Positions 1-61,641 are shown, counted from the first letter of the stretch. The stretch is 64,000 bases of DNA from Candidatus Poriferihabitaceae bacterium (GCA_965203265.1 CBDBBV010000002.1:1362773-1426772), one strand, 5' to 3'. Numbers and translations: made by a program. Notes: a model not told the origin generated them from the letters alone.

Positions 1-1772
1 CGCCCGCGCAACTGGTGCAGCTGCGCCAGCCCGAGGCGCTCGGCGTTTTCGACGATCATGAGGCTGGCGGCGGGCACATCGACGCCCACTTCGATCACCG
101 TGGTGGCGACCAGCAGGTCGATGTCGCCGTGGTGGAATCTGCGCATGATTTCTTCCTTTTCGGCGGATTTCATGCGCCCGTGGATGAGATCGACGGCGAC
201 TTCGGGGAGTTGTCGGGCGAGGGTTTCGCGAGTTTCCGTGGCGGCCTGCGCCTGCAGTTTGTCCGATTCCTCGATGAGCGGGCATACCCAGTAGGCTTGC
301 TGCTTGCGTCCGCGCATTTTGCGGATGCGCGCGGCCACTTCGGCACGGCGGCTGTTGGGCAACACCACGGTGTGCACGGGTTTGCGCCCCGGCGGGAGTT
401 CGTCGATGCTGGAGATGTCGAGGTCGGCGTAGAAAATCATCGCCATGGAGCGCGGGATGGGCGTCGCGCTCATGATCAGCTGGTGCGGCACGATGCCGCT
501 ACCGCCGCTGCCGCCGTCGTCGCCTCCTCCCGCCTTGTTGCGCAGAGCCAGGCGTTGATCGACGCCGAAACGATGCTGCTCGTCGACGATCATCAGGCCG
601 AGGCGGTGGAATTCCACCTGCTGCTGGAAGAGGGCGTGGGTGCCGATGACCATCTGCGATTCCCCCGACTGAATGCGGTGCACCGATTTCGCCCGCGCCG
701 CCGCCGGCATTCGTCCGCTCAGCCATTCGAGTTCGATGCCGAGGGGTTCGAGCCATCCGGCGAAGGTTTTGCGATGCTGCTCGGACAGCAATTCCGTGGG
801 CGCCATGAGGGCCGCCTGATGGCCGCCGTCGATGGCGCTCAGCGCCGCCGCCGCCGCCACCACGGTCTTGCCGGAGCCCACATCCCCCTGAATCAAGCGC
901 ATGGCCGGCGATGAGCCGGCCAGATCGGCCAACACTTCGCCGATAACCCGCTGCTGGGCGGCGGTCAGGGTGAAGCTGAGTTGCGACTGCAATTTCTCCC
1001 AGCTGCCGCCGCCGGCGTTGCATCGGGGGGCGTTGCGCGCGCGGTGTTTTTCCCGCAGGCGGGCGAGGGCGAGGTGATGGGCGAGCAGCTCCTCGGTGGC
1101 TAGCCGTTGTTGCGCCGGGTGGGTACCGGCGAGCAGGGCGTCGGTGTCGGCATCGGGGGGCGGGTGGTGGACGGTTTGCAGGGCTTGTTCGAGGGGCATG
1201 AGGTCGAAGTGTTGGCGTACCGACTGGGGCAGGCATTCTTGCAGGTTATCAAGGTCGCGGTCGAGGGTTTGGCCGACCAATTTGCGCATGGCGTCGGCGC
1301 CGATGCCGGCGGTGGTCGGGTAGATCGGCGTGAGCGCGGCTTCGGTGGCGTTTTGCGGGTAATTCGGGTAGAGGCGGTATTCCGGATGCACCATTTCCGG
1401 CGGATGGATGCCGCTACGCCGCGCTTCGCCGTAGCAACGCACCCAGAGGCCCGTTTGGAAGCCGCGCTGTTGCGCCGGGTAGAAGTGGAAGAAGCGCAGA
1501 GTCAGGCCATCGGTTTCGTCGCGGATGTGAACCCGTAGGCTACGCCGCCGGCCCGGTTGAATGTCGGCTCCCTCGATTCGCCCCAGCACCACCGCCTCAC
1601 GCCCCATTTGCAGGTCGCGAATCGGGGTAATGCGGGTGCGATCCTGATAGCGGTACGGCAGATGGAAGAGCAGATCGCGCGGGTGCTCGATGCCCATCCG
1701 CTGCAGCCGCGCCGCAATTCGGGGGCCGATGCCGCCGAGTCGCTGCAGGGGATGTGGAGCCTTGGAGTTCAG
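1..1772 (-). CDS. recG: ATP-dependent DNA helicase RecG (C-terminus runs off the window; start codon unclear)
   Basis: Minus-strand translation gives PLQRLGGIGPRIAARLQRMGIEHPRDLLFHLPYRYQDRT near nt 1750-1640 and DLLVATTVIEVGVDVPAASLMIVENAERLGLAQLHQLRG at nt 1-120. It is absent from the ORF track because there is no stop in the window. There is an in-frame TGA at 1809-1811. No ATG/GTG/TTG lies before the conserved N-terminus; CTG at 1772 is the only candidate start. Confidence 0.85.
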   Translation of the reverse strand, partial: MNSKAPHPLQRLGGIGPRIAARLQRMGIEHPRDLLFHLPYRYQDRTRITPIRDLQMGREAVVLGRIEGADIQPGRRRSLRVHIRDETDGLTLRFFHFYPAQQRGFQTGLWVRCYGEARRSGIHPPEMVHPEYRLYPNYPQNATEAALTPIYPTTAGIGADAMRKLVGQTLDRDLDNLQECLPQSVRQHFDLMPLEQALQTVHHPPPDADTDALLAGTHPAQQRLATEELLAHHLALARLREKHRARNAPRCNAGGGSWEKLQSQLSFTLTAAQQRVIGEVLADLAGSSPAMRLIQGDVGSGKTVVAAAAALSAIDGGHQAALMAPTELLSEQHRKTFAGWLEPLGIELEWLSGRMPAAARAKSVHRIQSGESQMVIGTHALFQQQVEFHRLGLMIVDEQHRFGVDQRLALRNKAGGGDDGGSGGSGIVPHQLIMSATPIPRSMAMIFYADLDISSIDELPPGRKPVHTVVLPNSRRAEVAARIRKMRGRKQQAYWVCPLIEESDKLQAQAATETRETLARQLPEVAVDLIHGRMKSAEKEEIMRRFHHGDIDLLVATTVIEVGVDVPAASLMIVENAERLGLAQLHQLRG

Positions 1773-8938: not shown

Positions 8939-10624
8939 ATGCCAACCAATGAAGCCCCGCCGGAACGCGAATCCATGGCGGTCGATGTGGTCATAGTCGG
9001 TGCCGGGCCGGCCGGATTGTCCGCCGCCTGCCGATTGATGCAACGGGCTCGCTCGGCCGAACGGGAACTGTCCGTGGTGGTGCTGGAAAAGGGATCGGAG
9101 GTGGGCGCGCACATCCTCTCCGGCGCCGTGTTCGAGCCGCGCGCGATGGATGAATTGTTTCCCGACTGGAAACAGCTCGGAGCGCCGCTCGATACGCCGG
9201 TCTCGGCCGATCGGGTATACATGCTGCGAAACGCCGAAAAGGCCATCGCCATGCCCCACTGGATGGTGCCGAAACCGATGCGCAATCAGGGCAACTACAT
9301 TGTCAGTCTCGGCGATGTATGCCGTTGGCTCGGGCAGCAGGCCGAATCCCTCGGCGTGGAAATTTTCCCGGGTTTCCCGGCGTCCGAGGTGCTGTACCAC
9401 GAAGACGGCGGCATCAAGGGCGTCGCCACCGGAGAAATGGGGCGCGCCGCCGACGGCGAGCGCAAGGGGTCGTTCGAGGCCGGCATGGAATTGCACGCCC
9501 AAGTAACGATCTTCGCCGAGGGCTGCCGCGGCCACCTCGGCAAACAATTGATCGACCAATTCCAGCTGGACGCCGAGAGACAAACTCAGCATTACGCCAT
9601 CGGCATCAAGGAACTGTGGCAAATCGATCCGAGCAAGCACGAACCCGGTCTGGTGGTGCACGGCGCCGGCTGGCCGCTGTCCGAGAGCGGCGCTTCCGGC
9701 GGCTCGTTCCTCTACCATCTCGGCGACAATCTGGTATCTCTTGGGTTGATCACCGATCTGTCGTATCAAAACCCCCACCTCAGCCCCTTCGATGAACTGC
9801 AGCGGCTGAAGCACCACCCGGTGTTCAAAACGCATCTCGAAGGCGGCGAGCGCATCTCCTACGGCGCCCGCGCCATCACCAAGGGGGGCTTGAATGCGCT
9901 GCCGAAGATGGTGCTGCCCAACGGACTGCTCATCGGCTGCGACGCCGGTACCCTCAATTTCTCCAAGATCAAGGGCTCCCACACGGCCATGAAATCCGGC
10001 ATGTTGGCCGCCGAGGCCGCGTTCGAGGCGCTCGCCGACGGCGGCGCGGCGCTGGATTCCTATCCGCGCCGCTTGCGCGAGTCGTGGCTCTACCGGGAGC
10101 TGTACCGCTCGCGCAATTTCGGTGCGGCGCTGCACAAATTCGGCATGTGGATGGGCGGCGCCTACAATTACCTCGACCAGAACCTGTGCAACGGCAAACT
10201 GCCATTGAAGCTGACCGACCCGGTAGCGGACTGCGACACCCTGCGACCGGCATCCGAGTGCGCGCCCATTCCCTACCCCAAGCCCGACGGCAAAATCAGT
10301 TTCGACAAGACCTCATCGGTGTATCTGTCCAACACCAATCACGAGGAGGATCAGCCGGTGCACCTGCGCCTGAGCGAGCCGTCTCGGGCGGTGGCGATCA
10401 ACCTCGACAAATACGCCGGCCCCGAGGCGCGCTTCTGCCCAGCCGGCGTGTACGAATTCCTCGCCACCGAAGACTCGGCGGCGGCGGCCACGGCCACGGC
10501 GGAACTTCGCATCAACGCGCAAAATTGCGTGCATTGCAAAACCTGCGACATCAAGGATCCCACCCGCAACATCACCTGGGTAAGCCCGGAGGGCGGCGGC
10601 GGGCCGAATTATGTGAGCATGTAG
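8939..10624 (+). CDS. electron-transfer flavoprotein:ubiquinone oxidoreductase (ETF-QO)
   Basis: ATG at 8939 after GAGGAG. It has the FAD fingerprint VDVVIVGAGPAGLSAA and the C-terminal 4Fe-4S motif NAQNCVHCKTCDIKDP. Confidence 0.9.
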   Translation: MPTNEAPPERESMAVDVVIVGAGPAGLSAACRLMQRARSAERELSVVVLEKGSEVGAHILSGAVFEPRAMDELFPDWKQLGAPLDTPVSADRVYMLRNAEKAIAMPHWMVPKPMRNQGNYIVSLGDVCRWLGQQAESLGVEIFPGFPASEVLYHEDGGIKGVATGEMGRAADGERKGSFEAGMELHAQVTIFAEGCRGHLGKQLIDQFQLDAERQTQHYAIGIKELWQIDPSKHEPGLVVHGAGWPLSESGASGGSFLYHLGDNLVSLGLITDLSYQNPHLSPFDELQRLKHHPVFKTHLEGGERISYGARAITKGGLNALPKMVLPNGLLIGCDAGTLNFSKIKGSHTAMKSGMLAAEAAFEALADGGAALDSYPRRLRESWLYRELYRSRNFGAALHKFGMWMGGAYNYLDQNLCNGKLPLKLTDPVADCDTLRPASECAPIPYPKPDGKISFDKTSSVYLSNTNHEEDQPVHLRLSEPSRAVAINLDKYAGPEARFCPAGVYEFLATEDSAAAATATAELRINAQNCVHCKTCDIKDPTRNITWVSPEGGGGPNYVSM

Positions 10625-10661
10625 CCGTAGCCGCGCCCGCGTGCGCCCTGCCCTTTCCCCT

Positions 10662-13600
10662 TCAGTCCACCCACACCCGCGCATTGCGGAAAATCCGGAT
10701 CCACGGGCTGTATTCCCCCCAATCGTCCTCGCCATCGGGCCGCCAGGAATTGCACACGGCGCGAAACACCCGTTCCGGATGGGGCATCATGATGGTGAAC
10801 CGCCCGTCCTCGTTGGTGAAGCCGGTTACGCCGCCGGGGGAGCCATTGGGATTTGCCGGATAGACCTCGCTGGCGCGCCCGTGGTTGTCGACGAAGCGCA
10901 GACCGATCTGTTGGCGGCGCTCCAGCCGGGCGAGATCGCCGGCGGCGAATTCCGCCCGACCCTCGCCGTGGGCGGTTGACACCGGCAGCATGGTGCCGCG
11001 CATCCCGCGCAGCAGCACCGACTCGTCCGAGCACACCTCCACCATGGCCACGCGGGCTTCGTACTGCTCCGAGCGGTTGCGCGCGAAGCCGGGCCAGTGC
11101 GCCGCGCCGGGTATCAACTCCTTGATGGCCGCCATCATCTGACAACCATTGCAGACGCCCAGAGCGAAGGTGTCCGCACGCGCGAAGAACTCGGCGAAAA
11201 TGTCCCGCAGCCGGGAGTTGTACAGAATGGACTTGGCCCACCCCTCTCCGGCTCCCAGCACATCACCGAAGGAAAACCCGCCGCACGCGGCCAAGCCCTT
11301 GTAGCGCACCAGCGACCGATCGGCGGCGAGATCGCTCATGGTTACATCCACCGCGGCAAAACCGGCGCGGTCGAACGCCGCCGCCATTTCCAGCTGGCCG
11401 TTGACTCCCTGCTCGCGCAGGATGGCGATCTTCGGGCGCTGTCGGCGCGTCGCAAACGGCGCGGTGATGTCCGTCTTGTGGTCGAAGGTCAGCCGGGAAA
11501 ACAGCCCCGAATCGTCGCGCGCCTCGATGCGCGCGTATTCCTCATCGGCGCACGCCGGGTTGTCGCGCAACTTCTGCATGCGCCAAGTGGTCTCGGACCA
11601 AGTGCGCTGCAGCGCCACGCGCGCCACCCGCAGCAAGGTCTCGCCGCCGCGAGTGATGTCGATGTGGTCGTCTTCGCTGATGCGGCCGATGCGATGAGCC
11701 GCCTCCCCCAGCCCGAATTGGCGGATTTGCGCCGCAATGGCATCGCGCTCGGCGCGGCGGGTCTGGATTACCGCGCCCAACTCCTCGGTAAAGAGCACCG
11801 CGAGGGGGGGGCCAGCCAGCCGGTCCAGCTCGATATGCAGGCCGCAGCGCGAGGCGAATGCCATCTCGCACAGGGTGGCCATCGCGCCGCCGTCCGAGCG
11901 GTCGTGGTAGGCCAGTATGCGCCGCTGGCGGGCGAGGGATTGAATCAGCTCGAAGAATTGCCGTAGCAGGTTGGCATCGTCCACATCCGGCGCCGAGTCA
12001 CCCATCTGCGCGCTCACCTGCGCCAGCACCGAGCCGCCCAAGCGGTTACGGCCGAGGCTCAAATCCAGCAGCCACAGGTCGCTGCCGTCTTTGCCGAGGC
12101 GGCAATCCAGCCGAGGCGTCAGGGTATGGCGGATGTCGTCCACCGCGGCGAACGCCGTTACCACCAGCGAAACCGGCGAAACCGCCTTGCATTCGCGCTC
12201 GGCTCGGTCGCGCCACACGGTTTTCATCGACATCGAGTCCTTGCCCACCGGAATCGATATACCCAGTTGCGGACACAGGTCGAGTGCAACCGCGCGCACC
12301 GCCCGAAACAAGTCGGCGTCCTGACCGGATTCGCCGGCGGCGGCCATCCAGTTGGCCGACAGTTTGATATTGCCGATGGTGCCGATGCGCGCCGCGGCGA
12401 TATTGGTGATCGCCTCGCCCACGGCCATGCGGCCACTGGCGGGAGCGTCGAGCACGGCCAGCGGCGTACGCTCGCCGAGGGCGACCGCTTCGCCGGTATG
12501 GGTGTGATAGTCGTCGGCGACCACGCCCACATCCGCCACCGGCACCTGCCACGGGCCGACCATCTGATCTCTGGCGACCAAGCCGCCGACGCTGCGGTCG
12601 CCGATGGTTACCAAGAAAGTCTTGTCGGCCACCGTAGGGAAAGCCAGCACCTGTTCAGTGGCGCGCCGCAGGGACAGGCCATCCAAGCGCAACTTCGCGC
12701 GTGCGCCGGGGGCGCTGACGGCATCCAAATTCATCTTCGGCGGCGAGCCGAACAACATCGCCATTTGCAAATCCACCGGAGTCGCGTGCGGCTTCCCCTG
12801 CGCGGCAAAATGCTCGTCGCGCACCAGCAGATTCTGCGCCGCATCGGCGCGCCCCACCTCGGCGTAGGGGCAACGCTCCCGCCGGCAGATCGCCTCGAAC
12901 TCGGCAAAACGAGACGGCGCCACCGCCAGCACATATCGTTCCTGCGATTCATTGCACCACACCTGCATCGGCGTCATGCCCGATTCGTCGCTGTGCACTC
13001 GCCGCAATTCGAAAGTGCCGCCGCGCGCGCAATCGTGCAACAGCTCCGGCAAGGCATTGCACAGTCCACCGGCGCCGACATCGTGGATGGAGACGATGGG
13101 ATTGCCTTTACCCAGCGCGCAGCAGGTGTCGATGACTTCCTGACAGCGCCGCTGCATTTCCGCGTTGCCGCGCTGCACCGAGGCGTAATCGAGCGTTTCC
13201 GAGCGGTTGCCGGAAGCGACGCTGGAGGCGGCGCCGCCGCCCAGCCCGATCAACATGGCCGGACCGCCGAGTACGACTATGGGGGCGCCTTCGGGGATGG
13301 TGTCCTTGCGGATGTGTTGTGGGCGGATGGCGCCGATGCCGCCGGCCAGCATGATCGGCTTGTGGTAGGCGTGGCGGAAGGCGCCGTCGCCGCCGGGCGG
13401 AATCTGCTCGAAGGCGCGGAAGTAACCGGCGATGGCGGGTCGCCCGAATTCGTTGTTGAAGGCGGCGGCGCCGATGGGCGCTTCCAGCATGATGCGCAGC
13501 GGCGAGGCGATGCGCGCCGGTTTGCATTCGTCCCCCTCCCACGGGCGGCGGCAATCCGGTAGCCGCAGGTGCGACACCGAATAGCCGACTATGCCCACCT

Positions 13601-14633
13601 TGGGTTTGCCGCCTCGGCCGGTGGCGCCTTCGTCTCGGATTTCCCCACCGGCGCCGGTGGCCGCGCCGGCGTAGGGGGAAATGGCGGTGGGGTGATTGTG
13701 GGTTTCCACCTTGGCGGTGATGTGGATGAGTTCCCGCCGATTGGTGAATATTCGGGTGCGCGGGTCGGCGCGAAAGCAGGTGGTCGTGCCGCCCGCCAGA
13801 ATCGCGGCGTTGTCGTCGTAGGCGACCAAGGTGCCGTGGCCGTGCTGCCGGTGGGTTTCGCGGATCATGGCGAACGGCGAACGATCCGCCGCTTGCCCGT
13901 CCACCCGCCAGTCGGCGTTGAAAATCTTGTGGCGGCAATGCTCGGAATTGACCTGCGCGAACATCATCAATTCCACATCCGTGGGATTGCGCCCAAGCTG
14001 GGCGAATTGCGCCGCCAGATAACGCCGTTCCGCCGCGCTCAGGGCGAAACCCAGCTCCATCTCGGCCTGTTCGAGGGCCTGCAAACCGCCGCCGAGAATA
14101 TCGATGACGGCGAGGGGTGCGGGCGGGGCGCGATGAAACAACTTTGCCGCGGCGGCGCGATCGGGCAACACCGATTCGGTCATGGCGTCGTGAATGATCG
14201 GCAATACCGCGTCGATAACCGAGTCAGCCGGTGTGCCTGAGATGCCGAGACGCCACTCGACCCCCCGCTCGATCCGCTCGACCGCGCCCAGCCCGCAGCG
14301 ATGCAGAATATCGGTGGCCTTGCTCGACCACGGTGAGATCGTGCCGATTCGCGGCGTTACCACGCGGACGAAGGCGGCGGCGTCAGCGTCGGCATCGGCG
14401 GGCGGTTGGCTGGAATGGCCATCGCGCTGGCGCAACAGGCGCTGCAGAATGGCTTGATCGTCAGGGGATAACTCGCCTTCGACCACGGCAAAGTGGATGA
14501 AACGGGCGTGGGCGGCGCGGCACTCCGGCACGACCGATTGCAGTTGCCGCAATATCTTGGCGGCGCGAAACGCGGACAACGCCTCGCCGCCGGGGATGAC
14601 CAACATGTTGTCGAACGATTTTGCTTGCGCCAC
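10662..14633 (-). CDS. purL: phosphoribosylformylglycinamidine synthase (large single-chain PurL)
   Basis: 1323 aa. The N-terminus is MAQAKSFDNMLVIPGGEALSAFRAAKILRQL. The C-terminal GATase domain carries the motif ALGVCNGCQMM. Confidence 0.95.
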   Translation of the reverse strand: MAQAKSFDNMLVIPGGEALSAFRAAKILRQLQSVVPECRAAHARFIHFAVVEGELSPDDQAILQRLLRQRDGHSSQPPADADADAAAFVRVVTPRIGTISPWSSKATDILHRCGLGAVERIERGVEWRLGISGTPADSVIDAVLPIIHDAMTESVLPDRAAAAKLFHRAPPAPLAVIDILGGGLQALEQAEMELGFALSAAERRYLAAQFAQLGRNPTDVELMMFAQVNSEHCRHKIFNADWRVDGQAADRSPFAMIRETHRQHGHGTLVAYDDNAAILAGGTTTCFRADPRTRIFTNRRELIHITAKVETHNHPTAISPYAGAATGAGGEIRDEGATGRGGKPKVGIVGYSVSHLRLPDCRRPWEGDECKPARIASPLRIMLEAPIGAAAFNNEFGRPAIAGYFRAFEQIPPGGDGAFRHAYHKPIMLAGGIGAIRPQHIRKDTIPEGAPIVVLGGPAMLIGLGGGAASSVASGNRSETLDYASVQRGNAEMQRRCQEVIDTCCALGKGNPIVSIHDVGAGGLCNALPELLHDCARGGTFELRRVHSDESGMTPMQVWCNESQERYVLAVAPSRFAEFEAICRRERCPYAEVGRADAAQNLLVRDEHFAAQGKPHATPVDLQMAMLFGSPPKMNLDAVSAPGARAKLRLDGLSLRRATEQVLAFPTVADKTFLVTIGDRSVGGLVARDQMVGPWQVPVADVGVVADDYHTHTGEAVALGERTPLAVLDAPASGRMAVGEAITNIAAARIGTIGNIKLSANWMAAAGESGQDADLFRAVRAVALDLCPQLGISIPVGKDSMSMKTVWRDRAERECKAVSPVSLVVTAFAAVDDIRHTLTPRLDCRLGKDGSDLWLLDLSLGRNRLGGSVLAQVSAQMGDSAPDVDDANLLRQFFELIQSLARQRRILAYHDRSDGGAMATLCEMAFASRCGLHIELDRLAGPPLAVLFTEELGAVIQTRRAERDAIAAQIRQFGLGEAAHRIGRISEDDHIDITRGGETLLRVARVALQRTWSETTWRMQKLRDNPACADEEYARIEARDDSGLFSRLTFDHKTDITAPFATRRQRPKIAILREQGVNGQLEMAAAFDRAGFAAVDVTMSDLAADRSLVRYKGLAACGGFSFGDVLGAGEGWAKSILYNSRLRDIFAEFFARADTFALGVCNGCQMMAAIKELIPGAAHWPGFARNRSEQYEARVAMVEVCSDESVLLRGMRGTMLPVSTAHGEGRAEFAAGDLARLERRQQIGLRFVDNHGRASEVYPANPNGSPGGVTGFTNEDGRFTIMMPHPERVFRAVCNSWRPDGEDDWGEYSPWIRIFRNARVWVD

Positions 14634-14865
14634 TCGGTTATCGATCTACCGACTCACTGAATTGCGGCTTGCGGATTGCGGGTCGCCATGCCGCGTCTAG
14701 CCGTCTGTGTTGGGGCATTTCAATCTGCCGGTGAAGCGCCGTGGGGAAAGCGGTATGGTACTTGCGCCGCCATCGGGAAACAAGTTTTTCCTCGACCGGA
14801 TCGGCATCGGCAGTCAGCCGTTTTACTTGGTAGAATCCCGTCCGTTTTCCCCCGACAACACCATA

Positions 14866-15609
14866 ATGAACGATACCCCGCAACTGCGCGTCGGCCTGTT
14901 GTTGTGCGACGATGTCGATGAACCGGCGCGCGCCGACCACGGCACCTATCTCAGCATGTTCAGTCAGGGCATCCACGCCACCGACCGCAATCTGCGACTG
15001 CTGCCGGTGCGCTGCCATCGGGGGGAAATGCCCGACTCGCCGGACGATTTCGACGGCTATCTGATTTCCGGCTCGCGTCACGCCGCCTACGATCCGCTGC
15101 CGTGGATCGAGCAACTGGGGGATTTCGTGCGCCGTTGCCGAGCGCGCCGCAAAAAGACCGTGGGCATCTGCTTCGGCCACCAACTGATCGCCCACGCCCT
15201 CGGCGGCGAGACGCGCCGCGCCGAGGTCGGTTGGGGCCTCGGCATCCACACCGCCCGCATCACCGCACCGCAGGCGTGGATGGGCGATGTGCAAAACGGC
15301 GGGCTGCGCGCCCCGAGCCACTACAATCTGGTGGTCGTGCATCAGGATCAGGTGGTCAGCCTGCCGCCCGGCGCCCGCGCGATCGCGCAAAACGACTTCT
15401 GCCCCATCAGCATGTTCGTCGCCGACGAGGTCATGCTCGGCATTCAGGGACACCCGGAATTCAGCCGGGAATTCGGCGTGGCCAGAGTAGACAGCCGCAA
15501 GGCGCAGCTTGCCCCCGACCTGTACCGGCAATCTCGCGCCTCCCTCGAGCGGCTGGCGTTGGATTCCGCGCAGGTGCTCGGCTGGGTGGCGCGATTCCTG
15601 CGCGGCTGA
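14866..15609 (+). CDS. class-I glutamine amidotransferase-like protein (GMP-synthase-type GATase1 domain)
   Basis: Trimmed to MNDTPQLRVGLLLCDDVDE. The nucleophile elbow is GICFGHQLIAHALGG and a HPEF motif is present. Confidence 0.75.
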   Translation: MNDTPQLRVGLLLCDDVDEPARADHGTYLSMFSQGIHATDRNLRLLPVRCHRGEMPDSPDDFDGYLISGSRHAAYDPLPWIEQLGDFVRRCRARRKKTVGICFGHQLIAHALGGETRRAEVGWGLGIHTARITAPQAWMGDVQNGGLRAPSHYNLVVVHQDQVVSLPPGARAIAQNDFCPISMFVADEVMLGIQGHPEFSREFGVARVDSRKAQLAPDLYRQSRASLERLALDSAQVLGWVARFLRG

Positions 15610-15634
15610 GGCGACCGAGGCGAGCCGAGGCGCC

Positions 15635-16288
15635 ATGACCTGGATCGCCCTGCTTCGCCACGGCGTTACCGAATGGAATGAACGCGGCCTGATTCAGGGG
15701 CAAACCGACATCCCGTTGAGCGCGAGCGGGCTGGCGAAACTGCGCCGAATCCAGCCCGGCGACGAGTTTCTGCGGGCGCGCTGGGTGACCAGCCCGCTGC
15801 AACGCGCGCGGCAGACCGCCGCCGCCCTCAACCCCCGCGCGGCGGCGGAAGTCCACCCGCACTTGATCGAAGCCGACTGGGGGGAATTCGAGGGGCTGCG
15901 CCGGGATGAAGTGCCCCAGCGGATTCGCGACCTGGCCCTCGTGCCGGCCTGCGGGCTCGACTTCCGACCGCCCGCCGGGGAAAGCCCGCGCATGGTGCGG
16001 GAAAGACTGTTGAGATGGTGCGCGAAAATTGCCGCCGAGGACAGCGACAGCGCGGCGGCGGTGGTCGCGGTAACCCACAAGGGCGTCATTCGCAGCGCGC
16101 TGAGCGCCGCCTGCGGTTGGCAGATGGAGGCGGATTTCGAGACGACACCGGACTGGTCGCTACCGCATATCTTCCGTTTCGACAGCAGTAGCGGCAGCCT
16201 ACGCCTCGTGCGCCTGAATTGCCCGTGGCAGCAGGCGCCGCAACCTCATGCGGATCAAACGGATCACGAGGCAGCGCCGCCGTCCTGA
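15635..16288 (+). CDS. histidine phosphatase (phosphoglycerate mutase) family protein
   Basis: MTWIALLRHGVTEWNERGLIQGQTDIPLS contains the RHG catalytic motif. Confidence 0.8.
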   Translation: MTWIALLRHGVTEWNERGLIQGQTDIPLSASGLAKLRRIQPGDEFLRARWVTSPLQRARQTAAALNPRAAAEVHPHLIEADWGEFEGLRRDEVPQRIRDLALVPACGLDFRPPAGESPRMVRERLLRWCAKIAAEDSDSAAAVVAVTHKGVIRSALSAACGWQMEADFETTPDWSLPHIFRFDSSSGSLRLVRLNCPWQQAPQPHADQTDHEAAPPS

Positions 16289-17065: not shown

Positions 17066-17857
17066 ATGATCGTCGAACAAATCTGGACCGGCAACGCCTA
17101 CCGCAACTTCAACTACCTGATCGCCTGCCCGCAAACCGGCGAGGCCTTGGCCATCGATCCACTGGATCACCGCAAATGCCTCGCCCTCGCCCGCCAACGG
17201 GGATGGGAAATCACGCAGGTGGTCAACACCCACGAACATCAGGATCACATCGGCGGCAATCGCAAGGTGGTGGAGGCGACCGGCGCGAAAATTCTCGCCC
17301 ACAGCGGGGCGGCGGCGGCGATACCGGAGATGGATCGGGGCCTGGCCGCCGGCGACACCATCAAACTCGGCGCCACCGTGGAGCTGGAAGTGCTGGACAC
17401 GCCGGGCCACACCATGAGCCATGTCTGCCTGCTGTCGCACACCGATGTTCCGGCGTTGTTCTGCGGCGACACCCTGTTCAACGCCGGCGTCGGCAACTGC
17501 CACAACGGCGGCCATCCCGAGGAACTCTACCAAACCTTCGCCGATCAACTGGCCGCTTTGCCGGATGACACGATGATCTATCCGGGCCACGAGTATCTGG
17601 AAACCAACCTGCGATTCACCCTGGCACGCGAACCCGGCAACACCCGCGCTCAGAGCCTGCTCGACACCGCCTCGAATCAGGATCCGAACCACGCACTGGT
17701 AACCACTCTGGGCCTGGAGAAGCAAATCAACGCCTTCCTGCGCCTGCAAAATCCGGAGGTGATCGCCCAACTCAAACTGCGCTGCCCGGAATTGGTGGAC
17801 GAACCGGATGACAAGACCGTGTTTTTGAAACTGCGGGAATTGCGGAATGAGTGGTAG
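17066..17857 (+). CDS. gloB: MBL-fold hydrolase, hydroxyacylglutathione hydrolase-like
   Basis: Motif VNTHEHQDHIGGN (THxHxDH), then TPGHTMSHVC, and a length of 263 aa. Confidence 0.8.
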   Translation: MIVEQIWTGNAYRNFNYLIACPQTGEALAIDPLDHRKCLALARQRGWEITQVVNTHEHQDHIGGNRKVVEATGAKILAHSGAAAAIPEMDRGLAAGDTIKLGATVELEVLDTPGHTMSHVCLLSHTDVPALFCGDTLFNAGVGNCHNGGHPEELYQTFADQLAALPDDTMIYPGHEYLETNLRFTLAREPGNTRAQSLLDTASNQDPNHALVTTLGLEKQINAFLRLQNPEVIAQLKLRCPELVDEPDDKTVFLKLRELRNEW

Positions 17858-17877
17858 GGGTGGCGGCGCCTCGGTAG

Positions 17878-20800
17878 GTGGATATGGGAGGATGGCATCT
17901 TTCTCCGACACGTGACCCCCTTTGGATGAAGCGGAAAATGAACGATGTAGAAAAGAAACGGAAAGATTTTATCGAGAAGTTGGCTCGTAAAAATAGGAAG
18001 CTTTATGGAACATCCGATGGGAGCGGACTGCTGAGGGTAATCAAATTCGCTTTTGAGCATAGTTGGGTCTACGTCTTCGAACTGGTTCAAAATGCACTTG
18101 ATGCAGGTGCGCGCTCAGTTGCGCTTCGACTGACCGAAGACGGTGATTCCCTGATTTTTCAGCATGATGGAAATTGCCCTATCAAGAAAAAGGACGTTAA
18201 AGGACTCTCTAAGGTTCTACGATCTACCAAAGGCGCATCTTCCGTGGGCTTTATGGGCATCGGTTTCAAGAGCATCTTTACGCGATTTCAGGAGGTTCGG
18301 GTCTCTGGGTGGAGATGGACATTTCGCTACAAGGTTTCACAGCAGGTTGGTGGTAAATACGGAGACGTACAACGCGATTGGCTGGGGGCAGTGATTCCAA
18401 TCTGGGATGACACAATCGCCGCACCTGACGGTAGATTCACAACCCGTTTTGAAATGCGCCAACGAACGAAGAGAGATACGGATTTGAACTCCGATTTGAC
18501 ACACTTTCTTCCTGATAATGATTGTACATCCCTCGCAATTCTAGCAGTGTCTGGGCTGAAACGCCTCGAGATAAACGGTCGGATATGGAAATTGAACGTC
18601 AGCGCGGAACACAATGGAAGATCGGAGGCGACTGCTCTTTCGGAAGGAAAGATCCGGCGTTGGCGAGTTTTTCCAGTGGAATTCAAACCTTCCCGTGAAG
18701 CGGTCGCCTGTTTCCTCGAACACCGCGATATCCAACCAACCGAGGAAAAACGCGAGCAGGTGGAGGCGGAAGCTGCCCGCCCTCGCAAAGTGCTGGGAGT
18801 ACTACCTTTGGATGAAAATGGTATACCTGACCCACCACTCAGAGGACGTGTCTACGCCACCTTACCAACCGAGGTTACCGTGCCCTTTGGCCTCCACATC
18901 CATGCCGACTGGTTGTTGAATATATCGAGGAGCGGTTTTAAAGAACTTGAAGACAACCCGTGGCAGCGCGGTATCACGGACAAGATCGCGGACATTATTG
19001 GAGCATTCCTCGAGTGGTCCGCCGATACGCACACACAGCCCGATGCGGTGAAAGCAACGTTCAACGTCCTTGCACCACCGTTGCTCGAAGTAGGCGGTCT
19101 TGAAAAGCTTCTTGCCGAGGATAGCTGGCTGTCGAGATTGCGGAAACGTATTGAAGATTCTGCGGTATTCCCCGTCTGGACTGGTGAACCGAGCACCGTG
19201 AAGTTTGCGAAACCGGGTGAAATTCTTGTCCCTCCGAAACCGCTGACAGATGCATTTGAGGAAAAACCGGAATTACGGCCGACAGATCTCTTGAAAGGGC
19301 ATGTGCTCAGATATGACTTGCTTGGAGATGAGGCGCTTGAATTTCTGCGCCGAATTGGTTTTCTTACCGAAATGTCGCCGCGAGACTTGGAGCGTGCGTG
19401 GAAAGATGGTTTGGAGGAGTGGTGGAAAACACTCCCCAACAATAAGAAGGAGCGCCGTCAGCTGCTTTTCCGCATTTGGGCTGCTGTCGCTGACCTGTCC
19501 TACGATGAAGCATGGCGAGATGCCAAGCTCCCGTGCATCCGTTCCGTCACCGGGAAATGGCTTCCGGTGGATGAGGCCGCATTCATCAAAGGGAATCTAC
19601 CGAAAGAAGATCAGCCGGGCGGTGCTGAGACGCTTCAGTTCATGCAACCATTTATCAAGGATGAAAACCGCTTGCCGAACCAATGGATTACTGCGCTGGA
19701 TCAATGGTATAGCCAACCAGAGGATTCAGACCCAATGAAAAAAGCTTGGAAATGGATTAAGGATGAGGATAACGCAAAAAGCATTAGTCTCAAAGAAATT
19801 GTCGAGGACGCGATGAACACTCTGATATCCTCGACAACGCCTGACTGGTCGGTGCTCGTACCGTTTGGGCACTGGGCAAAGCACGGAAATCGCCATGACC
19901 TGTTGACTCACGTGCTCGTAGAATCAGAAGACAACCCGCAGGGTGTGCCAGTTAGAGAGGCACTCTTGGCCGACCCTTATATCGAACATGGGCAGGGCCG
20001 CCGATGCTTTTTTCCAGATATTCCCGCAATCGTGCCGGCTTATCTGGAACGGGACCCCAAGAACGCAGACGCCCGAGAATGGGGTGAGTTTTTCAAGAGG
20101 GCTGGCGCCCAAGGCCAGATTGAAGTGCTGCCAATAAAAAAGAAAGCCGGTCGATATGATAGGAATACAGTCGCAGAGTTTCTTTGTCGTCAAGTCGGAA
20201 AGGAGGACGAATCCAATGACGACGGTTATACGCTTACGGACTTCGATATCAATCCAGAGATTCCAGAATCAAATGCACCAGAAGAACAACGAATGGCTTT
20301 TGCGCTTTGGCTTAACGGCGAATTCAACGAACTGAAAGGCAAGGGAAAACGGCAAGCATCGTATTATTTCGGCAAACAGAAGCCCCCCCTCGAGGGGAAG
20401 GCACCTAGCATTTGGGTAAACAAACTATCCGAACTTGCCTGGATACCCTGCAAAGACGGAAAACTCAGGCAACCACGAGAGATACTTCGGCAGTTTGATC
20501 CCGCGCGGGAAGACGCGCCGGTCGCACAGTTATCGTCCGAGCTTATGGATGTGTTGGAAAAAGAAGGTGTGGAATTCGGTACGGATATTCCCGAAGCCAC
20601 AGCGCTCAGCCGCTTCTTGAATATTGCCTCCAAGCCCGATGCGAAAGAGCTTGCACAGTGTCTTTCCGAGTGTCGCAAACAGATAGAGACAGAAACAGAT
20701 AAAAATAGCTTCGTTCAATCTCTGCCAAACCTCAACATACCATTTGGCGATGACAAACACGTGCCACTCAACCGAATCGTCCGTCGAGCCGGAACGGGCT

Positions 20801-22440
20801 ACGGAAGCGATCTCGGTGGCTGGATTGTGCCATTGGATCGCATTGACAAAGAATTGCGAGAAGAATTGAAGCACCCCGATTTCCGCTACACTGTCCCGGA
20901 AGTCACCACGGGCGATCAAGCCTTGAATTACATTCAGCATGTCTGGAGGCGTGCCCGCTCGTCACCTGAGAGACTGGCGATCGAGGTTCGCGACGTTCTC
21001 CCGGTCGCCTATGGGTACTGTTTGGAAGAGTGTTCCAAAGACGTTGAGCTCTCGGATTTATGGAACGCAGCAAAACCACAAGCAATGGTATTTGTGGAAC
21101 GAGAATGGGTCTCCTTGACGAACGCCAGCAATATCTACTTCGACGATATCGAAGATCGGCGCTTTATACCCAATAAAGGCGAATTTCAAACCGTCACGGG
21201 TGGGCATCTAGGCCGCGACCTGCCCGAACGGATTCGTACCGTGGGAGCACTTGACCTGCCGTATCTATCTTCAATTGTAAAACGTGATTGGGATGAAGGC
21301 GAGACGTTAGCAGTTTCCTTCGATTGGTCATCCAAATTCAAATTTATATGCAAACTTCTCCGGCAGGTGCGGGGAAATGATCCTGCGGAGGGCGACAGGG
21401 CGGATAATGGAACCGATACACGACTGCGTCTTCTCCATGTTAGTAAACTTTCTTTGAAAGTCAGCATCGGGAATTCCACTGCTGAAAGCGTACCTGTGCA
21501 CGCCCGAATCCACGAGAAAATTCTGACTGTTGCAGGCCAGCCACTTGAGTTCGGCACCGACGCATCCAAGGAACTTCGACGCCATTTCTCTTTCGGGCAA
21601 CGCGCTGATCTTGCAACGGATCTCACCGGAATGCTCATGACCATCAATGACCCGGATTCGTTTAATTCCGCCGCCGAAAAATTTCGGCGTGCGCATGTTC
21701 CTGATTATGAATTGCCTACAGAATTCCGTCATGAGGCCACAAGTGGAGACATGACTGGTTCGGCATACAAGCCAGATCAAACCACCGTAGAATCAGATGT
21801 ACCCATGAGTCGAGTCGCACCCTCAAATGGCGGCTCTAGCCCCGGCAGGTCCGACCTGTCCACAGATAGCGAGGCAGTCTATGCTCCATCCGGTATGCCC
21901 AATACACCCGGACATCGGGTGTCGAGCTCGATGGGCGGCTCGTATACCAAGAACAGAGCTAAAGCTCTTGCGGAAATCAAGCCGCCCCATCAACAAGACG
22001 ATACAAACAAGGTAGGAACGACTAATGGAAATCCCGGCGCGTTTCACGCAGACACAGAGGAACGACAAATCGCCGCGAAATACGAAAGAGAAGATGGTCG
22101 TGAACCGGAACTCCTTCCCTTCCACCACAAAGGCTGGGATATCCGTAGCACCGATCCGAAAAGCGGAACGGTTCGCCTGATCGAGGTGAAAGGAAAGGGA
22201 TGTCCATGGGTTCAGGATGAAATCGTGGAGCTGAGCCATACACAGTTACGCGCAGCATTCGAAGCATCCGGCGAACCGAACACAGATTGGTATCTCTATG
22301 TTGTGGAGAAGACGGACAACGGCGATTACCAAGTGCTACCTATTTCGAACCTAGACCTTAAAGCCAATTTGGTCCTCTGTGGTGAGTCTTGGCGGGGGTT
22401 GGCAGAAAACCCCAAACGCTTCGAAAACCCTTCACAATAA
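17878..22440 (+). CDS. 1520-aa protein: N-terminal GHKL/sacsin-like ATPase domain + long unassigned middle + C-terminal DUF3883-like PD-(D/E)xK nuclease domain
   Basis: GHKL motifs are FELVQNALDAG (N-box, ~nt 18079), QHDGN and GFMGIGFKS. The C-terminus is GWDIRS...RLIEVKGKG...DWYLYVVE (~nt 22057-22380). G+C falls sharply inside the gene: 28/60 at 18001-18060 versus 40/60 at 17101-17160 by hand count. The start is uncertain (GTG 17878, ATG 17926 or ATG 17938). Confidence 0.8.
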   Translation: MDMGGWHLSPTRDPLWMKRKMNDVEKKRKDFIEKLARKNRKLYGTSDGSGLLRVIKFAFEHSWVYVFELVQNALDAGARSVALRLTEDGDSLIFQHDGNCPIKKKDVKGLSKVLRSTKGASSVGFMGIGFKSIFTRFQEVRVSGWRWTFRYKVSQQVGGKYGDVQRDWLGAVIPIWDDTIAAPDGRFTTRFEMRQRTKRDTDLNSDLTHFLPDNDCTSLAILAVSGLKRLEINGRIWKLNVSAEHNGRSEATALSEGKIRRWRVFPVEFKPSREAVACFLEHRDIQPTEEKREQVEAEAARPRKVLGVLPLDENGIPDPPLRGRVYATLPTEVTVPFGLHIHADWLLNISRSGFKELEDNPWQRGITDKIADIIGAFLEWSADTHTQPDAVKATFNVLAPPLLEVGGLEKLLAEDSWLSRLRKRIEDSAVFPVWTGEPSTVKFAKPGEILVPPKPLTDAFEEKPELRPTDLLKGHVLRYDLLGDEALEFLRRIGFLTEMSPRDLERAWKDGLEEWWKTLPNNKKERRQLLFRIWAAVADLSYDEAWRDAKLPCIRSVTGKWLPVDEAAFIKGNLPKEDQPGGAETLQFMQPFIKDENRLPNQWITALDQWYSQPEDSDPMKKAWKWIKDEDNAKSISLKEIVEDAMNTLISSTTPDWSVLVPFGHWAKHGNRHDLLTHVLVESEDNPQGVPVREALLADPYIEHGQGRRCFFPDIPAIVPAYLERDPKNADAREWGEFFKRAGAQGQIEVLPIKKKAGRYDRNTVAEFLCRQVGKEDESNDDGYTLTDFDINPEIPESNAPEEQRMAFALWLNGEFNELKGKGKRQASYYFGKQKPPLEGKAPSIWVNKLSELAWIPCKDGKLRQPREILRQFDPAREDAPVAQLSSELMDVLEKEGVEFGTDIPEATALSRFLNIASKPDAKELAQCLSECRKQIETETDKNSFVQSLPNLNIPFGDDKHVPLNRIVRRAGTGYGSDLGGWIVPLDRIDKELREELKHPDFRYTVPEVTTGDQALNYIQHVWRRARSSPERLAIEVRDVLPVAYGYCLEECSKDVELSDLWNAAKPQAMVFVEREWVSLTNASNIYFDDIEDRRFIPNKGEFQTVTGGHLGRDLPERIRTVGALDLPYLSSIVKRDWDEGETLAVSFDWSSKFKFICKLLRQVRGNDPAEGDRADNGTDTRLRLLHVSKLSLKVSIGNSTAESVPVHARIHEKILTVAGQPLEFGTDASKELRRHFSFGQRADLATDLTGMLMTINDPDSFNSAAEKFRRAHVPDYELPTEFRHEATSGDMTGSAYKPDQTTVESDVPMSRVAPSNGGSSPGRSDLSTDSEAVYAPSGMPNTPGHRVSSSMGGSYTKNRAKALAEIKPPHQQDDTNKVGTTNGNPGAFHADTEERQIAAKYEREDGREPELLPFHHKGWDIRSTDPKSGTVRLIEVKGKGCPWVQDEIVELSHTQLRAAFEASGEPNTDWYLYVVEKTDNGDYQVLPISNLDLKANLVLCGESWRGLAENPKRFENPSQ

Positions 22441-22521
22441 TACCAGTCAGCTGGGTAACCTACCCCGCACCGTCTCCTCCATCCACATCCTCAAGCGCCT
22501 CGGCGCCGCCCCGGCCGCCCA

Positions 22522-23649
22522 TCAGTCGGTCAAACAATCCGTCAGCGAATCCGCCAGATTCTGCATCAGGGCGAACCATGCGTCCGCGCCCGGTTGCAAT
22601 CCTGCACCGAGTGGGTCGAGGACGCCGCCGGTGGCGGCGGTGTCGGCTACCAGGGTGGTAACCAAGCCGGGCGGGAATTGGGGTTCGCGGAAGATGCAGT
22701 TGGCGTTGCGTTCTTGGATCAGTTCCTTGATTTCGCGGACTCGTTTGGCGCCGGGGGGTACCTCCGGGTTGATGGTCAGGGCACCGGCCGGGTGCAGGTC
22801 GAATTCGTGCTCGAAATACTGGTAGGCGTCATGGAAGACGATATATGGCGCCTCCGCAACCCCGCTCAGTTGTTCGCGCAGGGATTGTTGCGTGCGATCC
22901 AGCTTGGACAGGAGTTCGCGGGAATTGGCCTCGTAGCGATCGCGGTTGGCCGGATCCATGCGCGTCAGTTGGGCGGTTACGATGTGGGCGATGGCGCGCG
23001 CATTGGCGAACGACAGCCACAGGTGCGGATCAATCCGCGCGCGGTCGGCGGCGTGGTCGTCATGATCGTCATGGGCTTCATCGTCATGGCCTGCATGATC
23101 ATCATGGCCCTCGTCTTCATGGCCTGCATAATTGTCATGGCCCTCGTCTTCATGGCCTGCATGATCGTCATGGCCTTCGTCGTCATGGCCGGCATGATCG
23201 TCATGACCTTCATGGTCGTCATGGTCATGCCCTGGCCAGTGGCCGCCTTCTCGTTGTGGCAGCAGGGTTATCTCGTCGCTTTCCAGCAGGGTAACGACCT
23301 GCGTCTCGGCGCGCCGTTCGTGCAGAATTTTCTCCAGAGAACGCTCGATTTGCGGGCCGATCCAGACGACCAGATCCGCCTTTTCCAGCATGCGCGCCTG
23401 AGAGGGTTTCAGCTGGCTTACATGGGGGGACTGACCCGCCGGCATCAGCAACTGCGGTTCGCCGACATCGTGCATGAGGGCGGACACCAGCGAGTGCACC
23501 GGCAGCATGGAGGCGACTACTTTGGGGGCGGCGTAGGCCGATACGGATGCCAACAAAATCGCCCCGCCGAGCAGGAATCGAGGCAGGACGGACGATCCGG
23601 TGCCGGCGAGGCGAGAACGAAGGCGAAGGGATGTGGATGGATGAGACAT
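22522..23649 (-). CDS. znuA: zinc ABC transporter periplasmic binding protein ZnuA with long His/Asp/Glu-rich loop
   Basis: It has a signal peptide, a ~60-aa loop (GHDHDDHEGHDDHAGHDDEGHDDHAGHEDEGHD...), and sits in a znu/zur context. Confidence 0.9.
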   Translation of the reverse strand: MSHPSTSLRLRSRLAGTGSSVLPRFLLGGAILLASVSAYAAPKVVASMLPVHSLVSALMHDVGEPQLLMPAGQSPHVSQLKPSQARMLEKADLVVWIGPQIERSLEKILHERRAETQVVTLLESDEITLLPQREGGHWPGHDHDDHEGHDDHAGHDDEGHDDHAGHEDEGHDNYAGHEDEGHDDHAGHDDEAHDDHDDHAADRARIDPHLWLSFANARAIAHIVTAQLTRMDPANRDRYEANSRELLSKLDRTQQSLREQLSGVAEAPYIVFHDAYQYFEHEFDLHPAGALTINPEVPPGAKRVREIKELIQERNANCIFREPQFPPGLVTTLVADTAATGGVLDPLGAGLQPGADAWFALMQNLADSLTDCLTD

Positions 23650-54548: not shown

Positions 54549-55502
54549 ATGCCCACCCTGATCACCGGTTCCTTCGCTTACGACACCATCATGGTGTTCC
54601 ACGACCGGTTCAAGAACCACATCCTTCCCGAACAGACGCACATCCTCAATGTATGCTTCGCCGTGCCGGAACTGCGGCGGGAATTCGGCGGCTGCGCCGG
54701 CAATATCGCCTACAACCTGAAATTGCTCGGCGGCGACCCGCTGCCCATGGGCACCGTGGGGGAGGATTTCGCGCCGTATCGCAGCTGGCTGGAGGAAAAC
54801 CGCATCGACCTGACTCACGTGGTCGAAGTGCCGGGCGCCTTCACCGCTCAGGCATTCGTAACCACCGATGCGGACAACAACCAGATCACCGCCTTCCACC
54901 CCGGCGCCATGGAGCACGCCCACCGCAATCGGGTAACCGACGCCGCCGCCGACGCCGCTGGAATCGATTTGGGCATCGTCGCCCCGGACGGGCGCGAAGC
55001 CATGATCCAACACGCGGCGCAATTCGCCCGCGCCGACATCCCCTTCATCTTCGACCCCGGCCAAGGGCTGCCCATGTTCACCGGCGCCGAGCTGGATCAA
55101 TTCATCGAGCAGGCAACCCACATAGTGGTCAACGACTACGAAGCCGAACTGCTGCAGGAAAAAACCGGCAAGAGTCTCGAACAAATCGCCGCCCGCACCC
55201 AATCTCTGGTGGTAACTCGCGGCGCACGCGGCGCCGACATCCACAGCGACGGCGCCTGCATTCACATTGCCGCGGTGCCCATCGATCAAGCGAGGGACCC
55301 CACCGGCTGCGGCGACGCCTTCCGCGCCGGCTTGCTATACGGCCTCGCCCACCACCTCGACTGGCAAACCAGCGGGCAAATCGCCTCCCTCCTCGGCGGC
55401 ATCAAGATCGAACAACACGGCACGCAGAACCACAGATTCGACAAATCCGAATTCGAGGCGAGATACAGGGAGAGTTTCGGCGATTCGATTCGTTTGGCCT
55501 GA
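54549..55502 (+). CDS. PfkB-family carbohydrate/nucleoside kinase
   Basis: Motifs GGCAGNIAYNL and DPTGCGDAFRAGLLYG. Confidence 0.8.
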   Translation: MPTLITGSFAYDTIMVFHDRFKNHILPEQTHILNVCFAVPELRREFGGCAGNIAYNLKLLGGDPLPMGTVGEDFAPYRSWLEENRIDLTHVVEVPGAFTAQAFVTTDADNNQITAFHPGAMEHAHRNRVTDAAADAAGIDLGIVAPDGREAMIQHAAQFARADIPFIFDPGQGLPMFTGAELDQFIEQATHIVVNDYEAELLQEKTGKSLEQIAARTQSLVVTRGARGADIHSDGACIHIAAVPIDQARDPTGCGDAFRAGLLYGLAHHLDWQTSGQIASLLGGIKIEQHGTQNHRFDKSEFEARYRESFGDSIRLA

Positions 55503-55592
55503 GTGGTGCGGCGGGGTCGGCGGCGGCGCGCCCCGCGCATCTACCGTGCCGATTATTCGGCCCCGCGTGTCGCAAGGAGGAGAAGAGAATCG

Positions 55593-58400: not shown

Positions 58401-58414
58401 GTTTTATTCATCGT

Positions 58415-59377: not shown

Positions 59378-59603
59378 CACTGGAGCTCCCGCCTGAGCAA
59401 CCGACCGCGCGGCGATCGCCGGCAACGGACGATTTCCTTACACGGCTTTCCGGCGGCCTCGAGCCGATGCCCCCACGCGATGGCACAATCGAACATACTG
59501 CACAGTATCGCATGACTTCGGCTCGCGCCGCTCGATTTTCTACGCTGATCGAAGTTCGATCTTGCCTCCAAGTTGATTTTGCGCCGGTAGGTGGGGTAGC
59601 ATT

Positions 59604-59627
59604 CCGCAAATCCCGCAAATTGCGGGG
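59604..59627. promoter_or_regulatory. operator-like direct repeat plus palindrome in the divergent R-M control region
   Basis: CCGCAAAT (59604-59611) is followed by the 15-bp palindrome CCCGCAAATTGCGGG (59612-59626), ~45 nt upstream of the RHH gene. Confidence 0.3.
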
Positions 59628-59673
59628 TTTTGCCCGATTTTCGGGCGGTTATCTACTTACGGAGGTGGGCAAA

Positions 59674-59898: not shown

Positions 59899-59989
59899 GT
59901 GTTCCGATGGGAATTGGGCATTATCACCGAGGGGGGTTCCGGCTGAAAGTGGCTAGAAAAAATGCGCTGAATGCACAGGCGGTGGACTC

Positions 59990-61583: not shown

Positions 61584-61641
61584 TATGACGAGCAAATGGC
61601 GATTGTCATGATAGCGGTGGAACTTCGCGCCGCTCCCCCAC

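Follow-up and report, generated by a model that had tools for sequence, protein, structure and literature searches.

The analysis of a 64,000-nucleotide stretch of DNA from Candidatus Poriferihabitaceae bacterium (GCA_965203265.1, CBDBBV010000002.1:1362773-1426772; hereafter the window) has revealed a large gene, located between gloB and znuA, whose product is probably a Tiamat-type effector that acts alone against phages (or mobile elements), in the form of a divergent TmtA protein. Judged by sequence comparison, this product is homologous to TmtA and has the Tiamat architecture, and its branch is not represented in the current models. An earlier note, made from the sequence alone, had described one giant open reading frame (ORF) in a low-GC island, encoding a GHKL-type ATPase and a DUF3883 nuclease-like domain in an architecture with no assigned function. 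The ORF was found intact at 17878-22440, with a G+C content (GC) of 0.512 against 0.628 in the remainder of the window, and all the ATPase and nuclease motifs quoted were present where the note had placed them. The architecture, however, is that of TmtA, the protein of the Tiamat system (Millman et al. 2022), and TmtA models of the PADLOC library matched the window protein, so that neither the architecture nor its role in defence is new. Residue numbers given below refer to a protein of 1500 amino acids, except those of the PADLOC matches, which are in a frame of 1520 amino acids.

Tiamat has been described as a system of a single gene, coding for TmtA, with the domains 'Hsp90, DUF3684, DUF3883', and it is this combination, in which an Hsp90-like ATPase, DUF3684 and DUF3883 share a single chain of about 1300-1800 amino acids, that corresponds to TmtA (Millman et al. 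2022, supplement). The TmtA protein from B. cereus FORC_005 (IMG 2641244160, 1590 amino acids) is marked as verified in the same source. In later papers Tiamat appears as a single-gene system of the PD-(D/E)xK class. The window protein shares with TmtA the condition of a single stand-alone protein of about 1500 amino acids without a conserved partner gene, the N-terminal Hsp90-like GHKL ATPase and the C-terminal DUF3883/NOV_C nuclease.

Eight TmtA models of the PADLOC library, and models of no other family, matched the window protein in the raw hmmscan output. The best match (E=1.7e-36) covered residues 66-454, and a second one aligned residues 1299-1512 with positions 1298-1506 of a 1563-residue model, the protein being colinear with the model and similar to it in length. 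A cross-clade comparison has been carried out with the first 400 amino acids of each protein, as given in the Millman supplement. The B. cereus TmtA reached 462 bits with its own PADLOC model and 48-135 bits with the other TmtA models, and the Enterobacter TmtA 541 and 19-54 bits, respectively, while the window protein has no model of its own and scored 20-90 bits with the others. These similar cross-clade scores indicate that the window protein is as distant from each TmtA clade as the clades are from one another; it falls outside all nine modelled TmtA clades, with no strong, near full-length match to any PADLOC TmtA hidden Markov model (HMM). Comparison with the verified type was made with fragments of it. 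The family profile aligned by hhalign with B. cereus-type fragments with a probability of 96% (E=3.9e-9) over 462 columns (residues 45-594), and this match, with about 12% identity in the aligned N-terminal part, runs well past the ATP-binding core. Relatives at 26-33% identity from Myxococcota, Planctomycetota, Desulfobacterales and Syntrophomonas matched TmtA models at their ends only, with 198 bits at most, and the most distant relatives of the central region likewise showed end-only TmtA matches, without a model of their own. In addition, a protein of 680 amino acids (P0152), from a family of 79 member sequences, contained a sacsin-type ATPase and NOV_C and matched eight TmtA models; by its sequence, this family looks like a 'mini-Tiamat' without the centre of about 800 amino acids.

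The GHKL/sacsin-type ATPase assigned in the earlier note was confirmed by the NCBIfam model NF047352 (sacsin N-terminal ATP-binding-like), which scored 59.5 bits with a cutoff of 50, and the N-box and motif II could be aligned with those of PMS2/MutL. The Pfam family HATPase_c_3, suggested in that note as a check, did not match the window protein at E<=1 and was matched by 11 of the 28 family members scanned. The AlphaFold2 model of residues 1-700 had a predicted local distance difference test score (pLDDT) of 85.5, and a Foldseek search of this model against the PDB gave full-length Hsp90, TRAP1 and HtpG as top matches (E=6e-9, about 730 aligned columns), with a low template modelling score (TM-score) that is expected because the domain orientations differ. 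According to structure prediction and profile comparison, the Hsp90-like part reaches about residue 600-700. The unmatched middle of about 1250 amino acids proposed from the sequence alone is thus reduced to residues ~700-1255.

Conservation was determined in an alignment of the best 120 of the matches listed, 118 of which were aligned at the ATPase positions. The residues E48, N52, D55, G78 and K98 and the GFMG[IV]GFKS box were invariant in these 118 homologues, as were H320, D324, W325, S330 and R331, the last of which would be a candidate for the catalytic-loop arginine. A different situation was found at D77, the adenine-contacting position of motif II (18166-18168), which is aspartate in 68 of the 118 homologues, including the window protein, and asparagine in the other 50; the verified B. 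cereus TmtA also has asparagine at the aligned position. In Hsp90, the change of the adenine-contacting aspartate to asparagine abolishes ATP binding. Since asparagine occurs at this position, nucleotide use by Tiamat proteins may be unusual.

The C-terminal domain was identified as NOV_C (DUF3883) by the Pfam model PF13020, with 32 bits for a gathering score of 22.1 (E=1.3e-7), in agreement with the DUF3883 call made previously, and the model was present in 26 of the 28 family members scanned. In a Foldseek search with the model of residues 650-1500, the last 130 residues gave matches to Hjc of archaea, RecU, EcoRV and the effector nuclease of SPARDA, with a target TM-score of up to 0.65, and small phage NOV_C/resolvase-like proteins also matched the C-terminal model. 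The candidate catalytic residues D1401, E1416, K1418 and E1431 were unchanged in 116-118 of the 120 homologues, so that the nuclease motif is conserved, a point on which the earlier proposal had been made dependent, and they correspond to the D/E/K/E set of HmaA, a protein of the Hma defence system. The NOV_C domain of HmaA is a Mn2+-dependent DNA nickase that acts on supercoiled plasmid DNA and not on linear DNA, and mutation of the D/E/K/E set abolishes defence (PMC11232893). HmaA resembles the window protein in its C-terminal PD-(D/E)xK domain, which has an Hjc-like fold and contains the D...ExK...E set, and in the fusion of an NTPase motor to a nuclease, which in HmaA is needed for defence. 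In contrast, the HmaA motor is a superfamily 2 (SF2) helicase of the Snf2 family, whereas the window protein has a GHKL ATPase and no Pfam helicase domain; HmaA is usually accompanied by the partners HmaB and HmaC, and there is no homology beyond the nuclease domain.

The region between both modules was predicted by AlphaFold2 to be confidently folded, with mixed alpha/beta structure, from about residue 725 to about residue 1255. Residues ~700-1255 matched no Pfam family, and no structure match in the PDB or BFVD was better than E~0.1; the Foldseek matches obtained with the model of residues 650-1500 were all within the nuclease domain. When PDB sequences were compared with the family profile, only the N-box of PMS2 was matched, and no internal repeat was detected by hhalign among nine segments. 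A phmmer search with residues 440-1255 against 1.84 billion cluster representatives yielded only 229 proteins (E<=0.001), of about 1300-1670 amino acids or fragments, and the match was always at the same position in such proteins, which makes the central region specific to this architecture. The nuclease is preceded by a linker of about 110 amino acids, with pLDDT values of 24-40 at model residues 618-722 (residues 1267-1371) and a column identity of 0.38-0.46, with insertions and deletions (indels). With the exception of this linker, the whole length of the protein was conserved in the alignment of 120 homologues.

Features of the TmtA-like gene and its immediate surroundings. Positions are counted from the first nucleotide of the window.
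Feature	Residues	Position	Strand	Basis or remark
gloB		17066-17857	+	upstream neighbour
gloB-gene spacer, 80 bp		17858..17937	+	8 differences from the sister allele (7 substitutions, one 1-bp indel)
TmtA-like gene	1500 + stop	17938..22440	+	start at ATG 17938 (likely)
Bergerat-fold (GHKL) ATP-binding core	~41-250	18058..18687	+	NF047352, PMS2/MutL alignment, AlphaFold2, conservation
N-box	E48/N52/D55	18079-18102	+
Motif II	H76-D77-G78	18163-18171	+
ATP lid	95-108			low confidence
Glycine box GFMGIGFKS	104-112	18247-18273	+
Hsp90-like module, continuation	~251-600	18688..19737	+	Foldseek (Hsp90/TRAP1/HtpG); hhalign, residues 45-594
Clade-specific central region	~601-1255	19738..21702	+	phmmer; absence of Pfam/PDB/BFVD matches
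Ser/Pro/Gly-rich linker, poorly conserved	~1256-1370	21703..22047	+	predicted disordered
NOV_C/DUF3883 PD-(D/E)xK domain	~1371-1500	22048..22437	+	Pfam PF13020, Foldseek, conservation
Catalytic candidates	D1401, E1416, K1418, E1431	22138-22140, 22183-22185, 22189-22191, 22228-22230
Gene-znuA spacer		22441..22521	.	9-bp and 11-bp extra blocks relative to the sister allele; without conserved att-like repeat
znuA		22522-23649	-	downstream neighbour, convergent; zur, znuC and znuB beyond

The ORF comprises 1520 codons when it is read from the GTG at 17878. A database protein (P0001) is 100% identical to the product read from the ATG at 17938, with a length of 1500 amino acids, and the N-termini of 27 homologues align from this point; the gene has therefore been taken as 17938-22440, and judging by these sequences its true start is likely the ATG. 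The composition of the gene differs from that of its surroundings, with flanks of 5 kb at GC 0.645 and 0.635. The gene is about 4.4 standard deviations under the mean, the next-lowest 4.5-kb segment of the window having a GC of 0.556, and the GC at third codon positions is 0.52, compared to 0.74-0.85 in the adjoining genes. Of two hand counts offered previously as a sign of this change, the 28 G+C in 60 nucleotides at 18001-18060 was reproduced, and the segment 17101-17160 contained 38/60 and not 40/60.

A second allele of the gene was found in a sister strain, on a metagenome scaffold (L075) that carries the gene for the protein P0002 at 10001-14533, at the same site between gloB and znuA. 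The gene order in this scaffold is purL, amidotransferase, phosphatase, an unnamed gene, gloB, the TmtA-like gene, znuA, zur, znuC and znuB. Proteins encoded by the flanking genes were 86-99% identical between both strains, compared to 70% for the TmtA-like protein. In windows of 100 bp, the DNA identity of the flanks was mostly 93-100% within 1 kb, and that of the gene ranged from 44 to 96% in a mosaic pattern. Synonymous divergence (dS, Nei-Gojobori) was 0.07-0.15 in the flanks and 0.43 in the gene, with values from 0.16 to 1.4 along it and a peak in the third that contains the linker and the nuclease; its ratio of non-synonymous to synonymous divergence (dN/dS) was 0.39, versus 0.06-0.22 in the flanks, and its dN was 8-24 times that of the flanking genes. 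The divergent tract starts in the final ~100 bp of gloB, and its other end is no more than ~20 bp away from the stop codon of znuA. The sister allele has a GC of 0.50, and proteins from other lineages were closer to the window protein than this allele at residues 751-850, 951-1100 and 1301-1500.

Rapid divergence in situ is by itself insufficient to account for this pattern because dS is raised and uneven along the gene, and the simplest reading of the sequences would be that recombination with foreign alleles has repeatedly replaced parts of the gene, which itself stays at a fixed site, as is common for defence genes; the reshuffling of this copy is unusually fast. The earlier note was right in kind in proposing horizontal acquisition, and the foreign composition stands. 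As the sister strain has its allele at the same site, the gene did not arrive in a single recent event. Between the two alleles, divergence is greatest at residues 704-854. The pair of alleles points to the parts that are exchanged fastest, around residues 700-850 and 950-1100 and in the linker and nuclease, as candidate specificity regions.

At least 253 proteins matched over 98-99% of the length with 49-70% identity. Close homologues (43-62% identity) were found in metagenome-assembled genomes of Latescibacterota, Acidobacteriota, Longimicrobiales, Alpha- and Gammaproteobacteria and others, and the fact that related sequences occur in so many different phyla is a sign of horizontal transfer. 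The GC of the gene was below that of its flanks in 34 of 36 loci. As for Tiamat, the family is chromosomal and neither phage- nor plasmid-borne: PHROGs, the phage collection and IMG/VR gave no family match, and a single weak match was obtained among plasmids. The close homologues come from at least six phyla or classes, and for many of them the bin names (RHO1_bin, COS1_bin, SB0665_bin, UUID isolates) are typical of sponge-microbiome studies, which would suggest a possible habitat-wide sharing.

The genomic contexts of the homologues were variable, as anticipated for a defence gene in the earlier note, and neighbours were different in every lineage examined except for the sister strain. ORF calling at these loci was crude, with known errors. 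Considering the five nearest large ORFs at each of 21 genome loci, no Pfam family was present in more than three, and by this lack of a recurring neighbour family there is no partner gene. A pooled PADLOC scan of 105 neighbour ORFs gave a maximum count of 2 per family. Defence or mobile-element genes were found in 7 of 8 other Pfam-annotated contexts, a figure without background control. These contexts contained a Shedu-like SduA_C protein with a helicase and many transposases; a BREX system; a PDDEXK_9 ATPase with a type I restriction-modification (R-M) system and toxin-antitoxin genes (L081); insertion sequence (IS) elements with a recombinase; RepA, a resolvase, VapBC and DruA; a methylase/helicase/HATPase cluster with toxin-antitoxin genes (L165); and a TrwC relaxase with PLD and REase-like nucleases. 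The eighth context was mostly metabolic, with a MazE antitoxin and AAA ATPases. At the L081 locus, an AAA-ATPase_like + PDDEXK_9 protein adjoins the gene (14611-16197), as it does in several lineages that are not related to one another; present in 3 of the 21 genome loci, it is the most recurrent neighbour, yet too infrequent for a partner. The cluster at L165 (54-8997) codes for a UvrD/PDDEXK_1 helicase-nuclease, a C5 DNA methylase, a Response_reg_2 protein and a HATPase_c_3/HEF_HK protein, with a vsr gene at the edge of the locus, and it is putatively another GHKL-containing defence cluster.

In the GHKL enzymes (MutL, Hsp90, MORC and the type II topoisomerases), ATP closes the lid and dimerises the N-terminal domains, which drives a conformational cycle that reaches distal domains, and in MutL a long disordered linker connects the GHKL module with the endonuclease at the C-terminus. 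MutL provides a model for ATP-driven N-terminal dimerisation that licenses a nick (GHKL review, PMC12733681). An ATP-gated DNA nuclease would be the most likely mechanism for the window protein by analogy with these enzymes and with the NOV_C nuclease of HmaA, and it has been proposed because a complete GHKL module, a conserved body, a linker and a complete PD-(D/E)xK site are present. The N-terminal Hsp90/MutL-like ATPase would act as a nucleotide-driven dimerising switch, and the clade-specific centre, presumably the fast-evolving and recombining part, could be a scaffold, a sensor for an infection cue or a restraint on the nuclease. The flexible linker would tether the C-terminal PD-(D/E)xK nuclease, which once licensed would nick or cut DNA, and the invader would be stopped either directly or through abortive infection. 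ATP gating, substrate and trigger are inferred.

That two strains carry the gene at the same place, between gloB and znuA and in a housekeeping neighbourhood, and that the protein, like MutL, has a disordered linker between its GHKL domain and a nuclease at the C-terminus, could also be attributed to a housekeeping enzyme of DNA repair or chromosome maintenance, in the style of MutL or MORC, kept at a core locus. The N-box and motif II are indeed shared with MutL/PMS2, but the MutL equivalog models reached only 11-15 bits, from the N-box alone, with cutoffs of 180-840, the nuclease is of the PD-(D/E)xK type instead of the MutL C-terminal metal site, and the window protein has an extra ~1000 amino acids between the domains. 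Moreover, a gene with GC 0.51 in surroundings of 0.63, mosaic and with its high dN relative to the flanks, from a family that is patchy across phyla at 45-62% identity and has different neighbours in other lineages, makes this explanation quite improbable. A conflict between mobile elements, or a selfish nuclease gene that is hard to lose (directed against plasmids or integrative and conjugative elements rather than phages), agrees with the homologues located beside relaxase, RepA, resolvase and transposase genes, and with the activity of HmaA's NOV_C domain on supercoiled plasmid and not on linear DNA (PMC11232893). As the sole explanation it is considered unlikely, because the one tested relative was scored against phages (Millman et al. 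2022) and the family is nearly absent from plasmids and absent from phage collections; the anti-mobile-element and anti-phage readings may both be true, and the data do not separate them.

A role as a quality-control chaperone similar to sacsin or Hsp90, with the nuclease domain accessory or inactive, would be in line with the match of the sacsin N-terminal model, with the Hsp90-like N-terminal and middle domains and with the Hsp90 proteins being the best structural matches. Such an ATPase is also combined with the same C-terminal domain in plant NO VEIN, according to the Pfam naming. The capture of plant sequences by Tiamat models in metagenome surveys fits this relationship. However, sacsin, Hsp90 and NO VEIN are eukaryotic, with chaperone or developmental roles, whereas the window protein is bacterial and horizontally mobile and has a complete nuclease active site, with D/E/K/E residues conserved throughout nearly all the homologues; it lacks DnaJ and HEPN domains and a client-binding C-terminal dimerisation domain, and its foreign composition and the island-like contexts of its relatives make a chaperone role barely tenable. 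That the gene is a decaying, non-functional relic of an old insertion is very improbable as well: its dN/dS is higher than in the flanks and promoter prediction upstream was empty, but both strains keep an uninterrupted frame of 4.5 kb, dN/dS is well under 1, all catalytic residues are kept and the AlphaFold2 models are confident. A more specific proposal, of tentative standing, is that of a separate, unmodelled Tiamat-like branch (~229 clusters at 50% identity) in which specificity would be determined by the ~800-amino-acid centre. Pieces of this centre would pass between distant phyla of a shared habitat (possibly sponge microbiomes) and be recombined at fixed core sites without a mobility gene, and the D/N dimorphism would then mean that the nucleotide site serves as a regulatory sensor and not as a plain ATPase.

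The assignment as a divergent, Tiamat-type defence effector is the best-supported reading, although several observations weigh against it. An Enterobacter TmtA candidate of 1429 amino acids was marked 'x' (Millman et al. 2022), and for this reason the architecture alone does not guarantee the phenotype; no description of the Tiamat mechanism was found in the literature searched. No TmtA model aligns to the central ~800 amino acids (residues ~455-1298), the best whole-protein TmtA score was 123.6 bits, from the ends only and with no model of the own clade, and Pfam DUF3684 was detected in none of 28 family members (hmmscan, E<=1); for the centre of the window protein, a diverged DUF3684-type region and a different module are both considered. 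The clade is known from its sequences, from which its defence function has been inferred. Finally, the gene is surrounded by housekeeping genes both in the window and in the sister strain. With the architecture and the defence role already known, the finding is modest in its own right. Beyond membership, its interest lies in an unmodelled branch with an orphan centre, in the mosaic exchange of alleles at a core-genome site without a mobility gene and in the D/N dimorphism of the nucleotide pocket. Tiamat has been validated as an anti-phage system, no solved structure related in sequence to the family was found, and the clade offers well-conserved sequences with confident models, of use for structural studies and mutagenesis, together with a list of residues to mutate. 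A sizeable branch escapes the current TmtA HMM sets, a point of importance for censuses of defence systems.

At the locus itself, the gene is stand-alone, as had been claimed, and no integrase, tRNA-type site or flanking repeat was found around it. In the spacer 17858-17937 prediction gave no sigma-70-like promoter and no terminator, and transcription by read-through from gloB is possible. An 11-bp insertion, CGCCTCGGCGC, is present at 22496-22506 relative to the sister strain, together with a second indel of 9 bp at ~22455-22463. A 9-bp repeat, GCGCCTCGG, occurs in both spacers and was considered as an attachment (att) site or target-site duplication; it was rejected as a chance repeat because its right-hand copy lies largely inside the 11-bp indel that is missing from the sister allele. 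Exact look-ups of P0001 and gloB revealed neither an empty gloB-znuA site nor other cargo there, and a metagenome scan with gloB gave only relatives of 74% identity or less, without synteny.

On the gloB side, the upstream genes are purL and those of a class-I amidotransferase and a histidine phosphatase. From ~10 to 47 kb the window consists of housekeeping genes (purL, gloB, znuACB/zur, NAD kinase, recN, mdh, acnB, lnt, phoH and miaB), so that in this genome its immediate surroundings are no defence island, in contrast to the earlier suggestion, which had placed the gene in a segment that also holds three R-M systems. The only R-M-like ORF checked (55593-57287, minus strand) is more than 33 kb away and is weakly similar to the N6-adenine methyltransferase BseCI (E=1.6e-4); it possibly corresponds to one of the R-M systems mentioned in that note. 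This ORF is located in a second lower-GC stretch of the window, 55500-62000, with a GC of 0.55-0.57.

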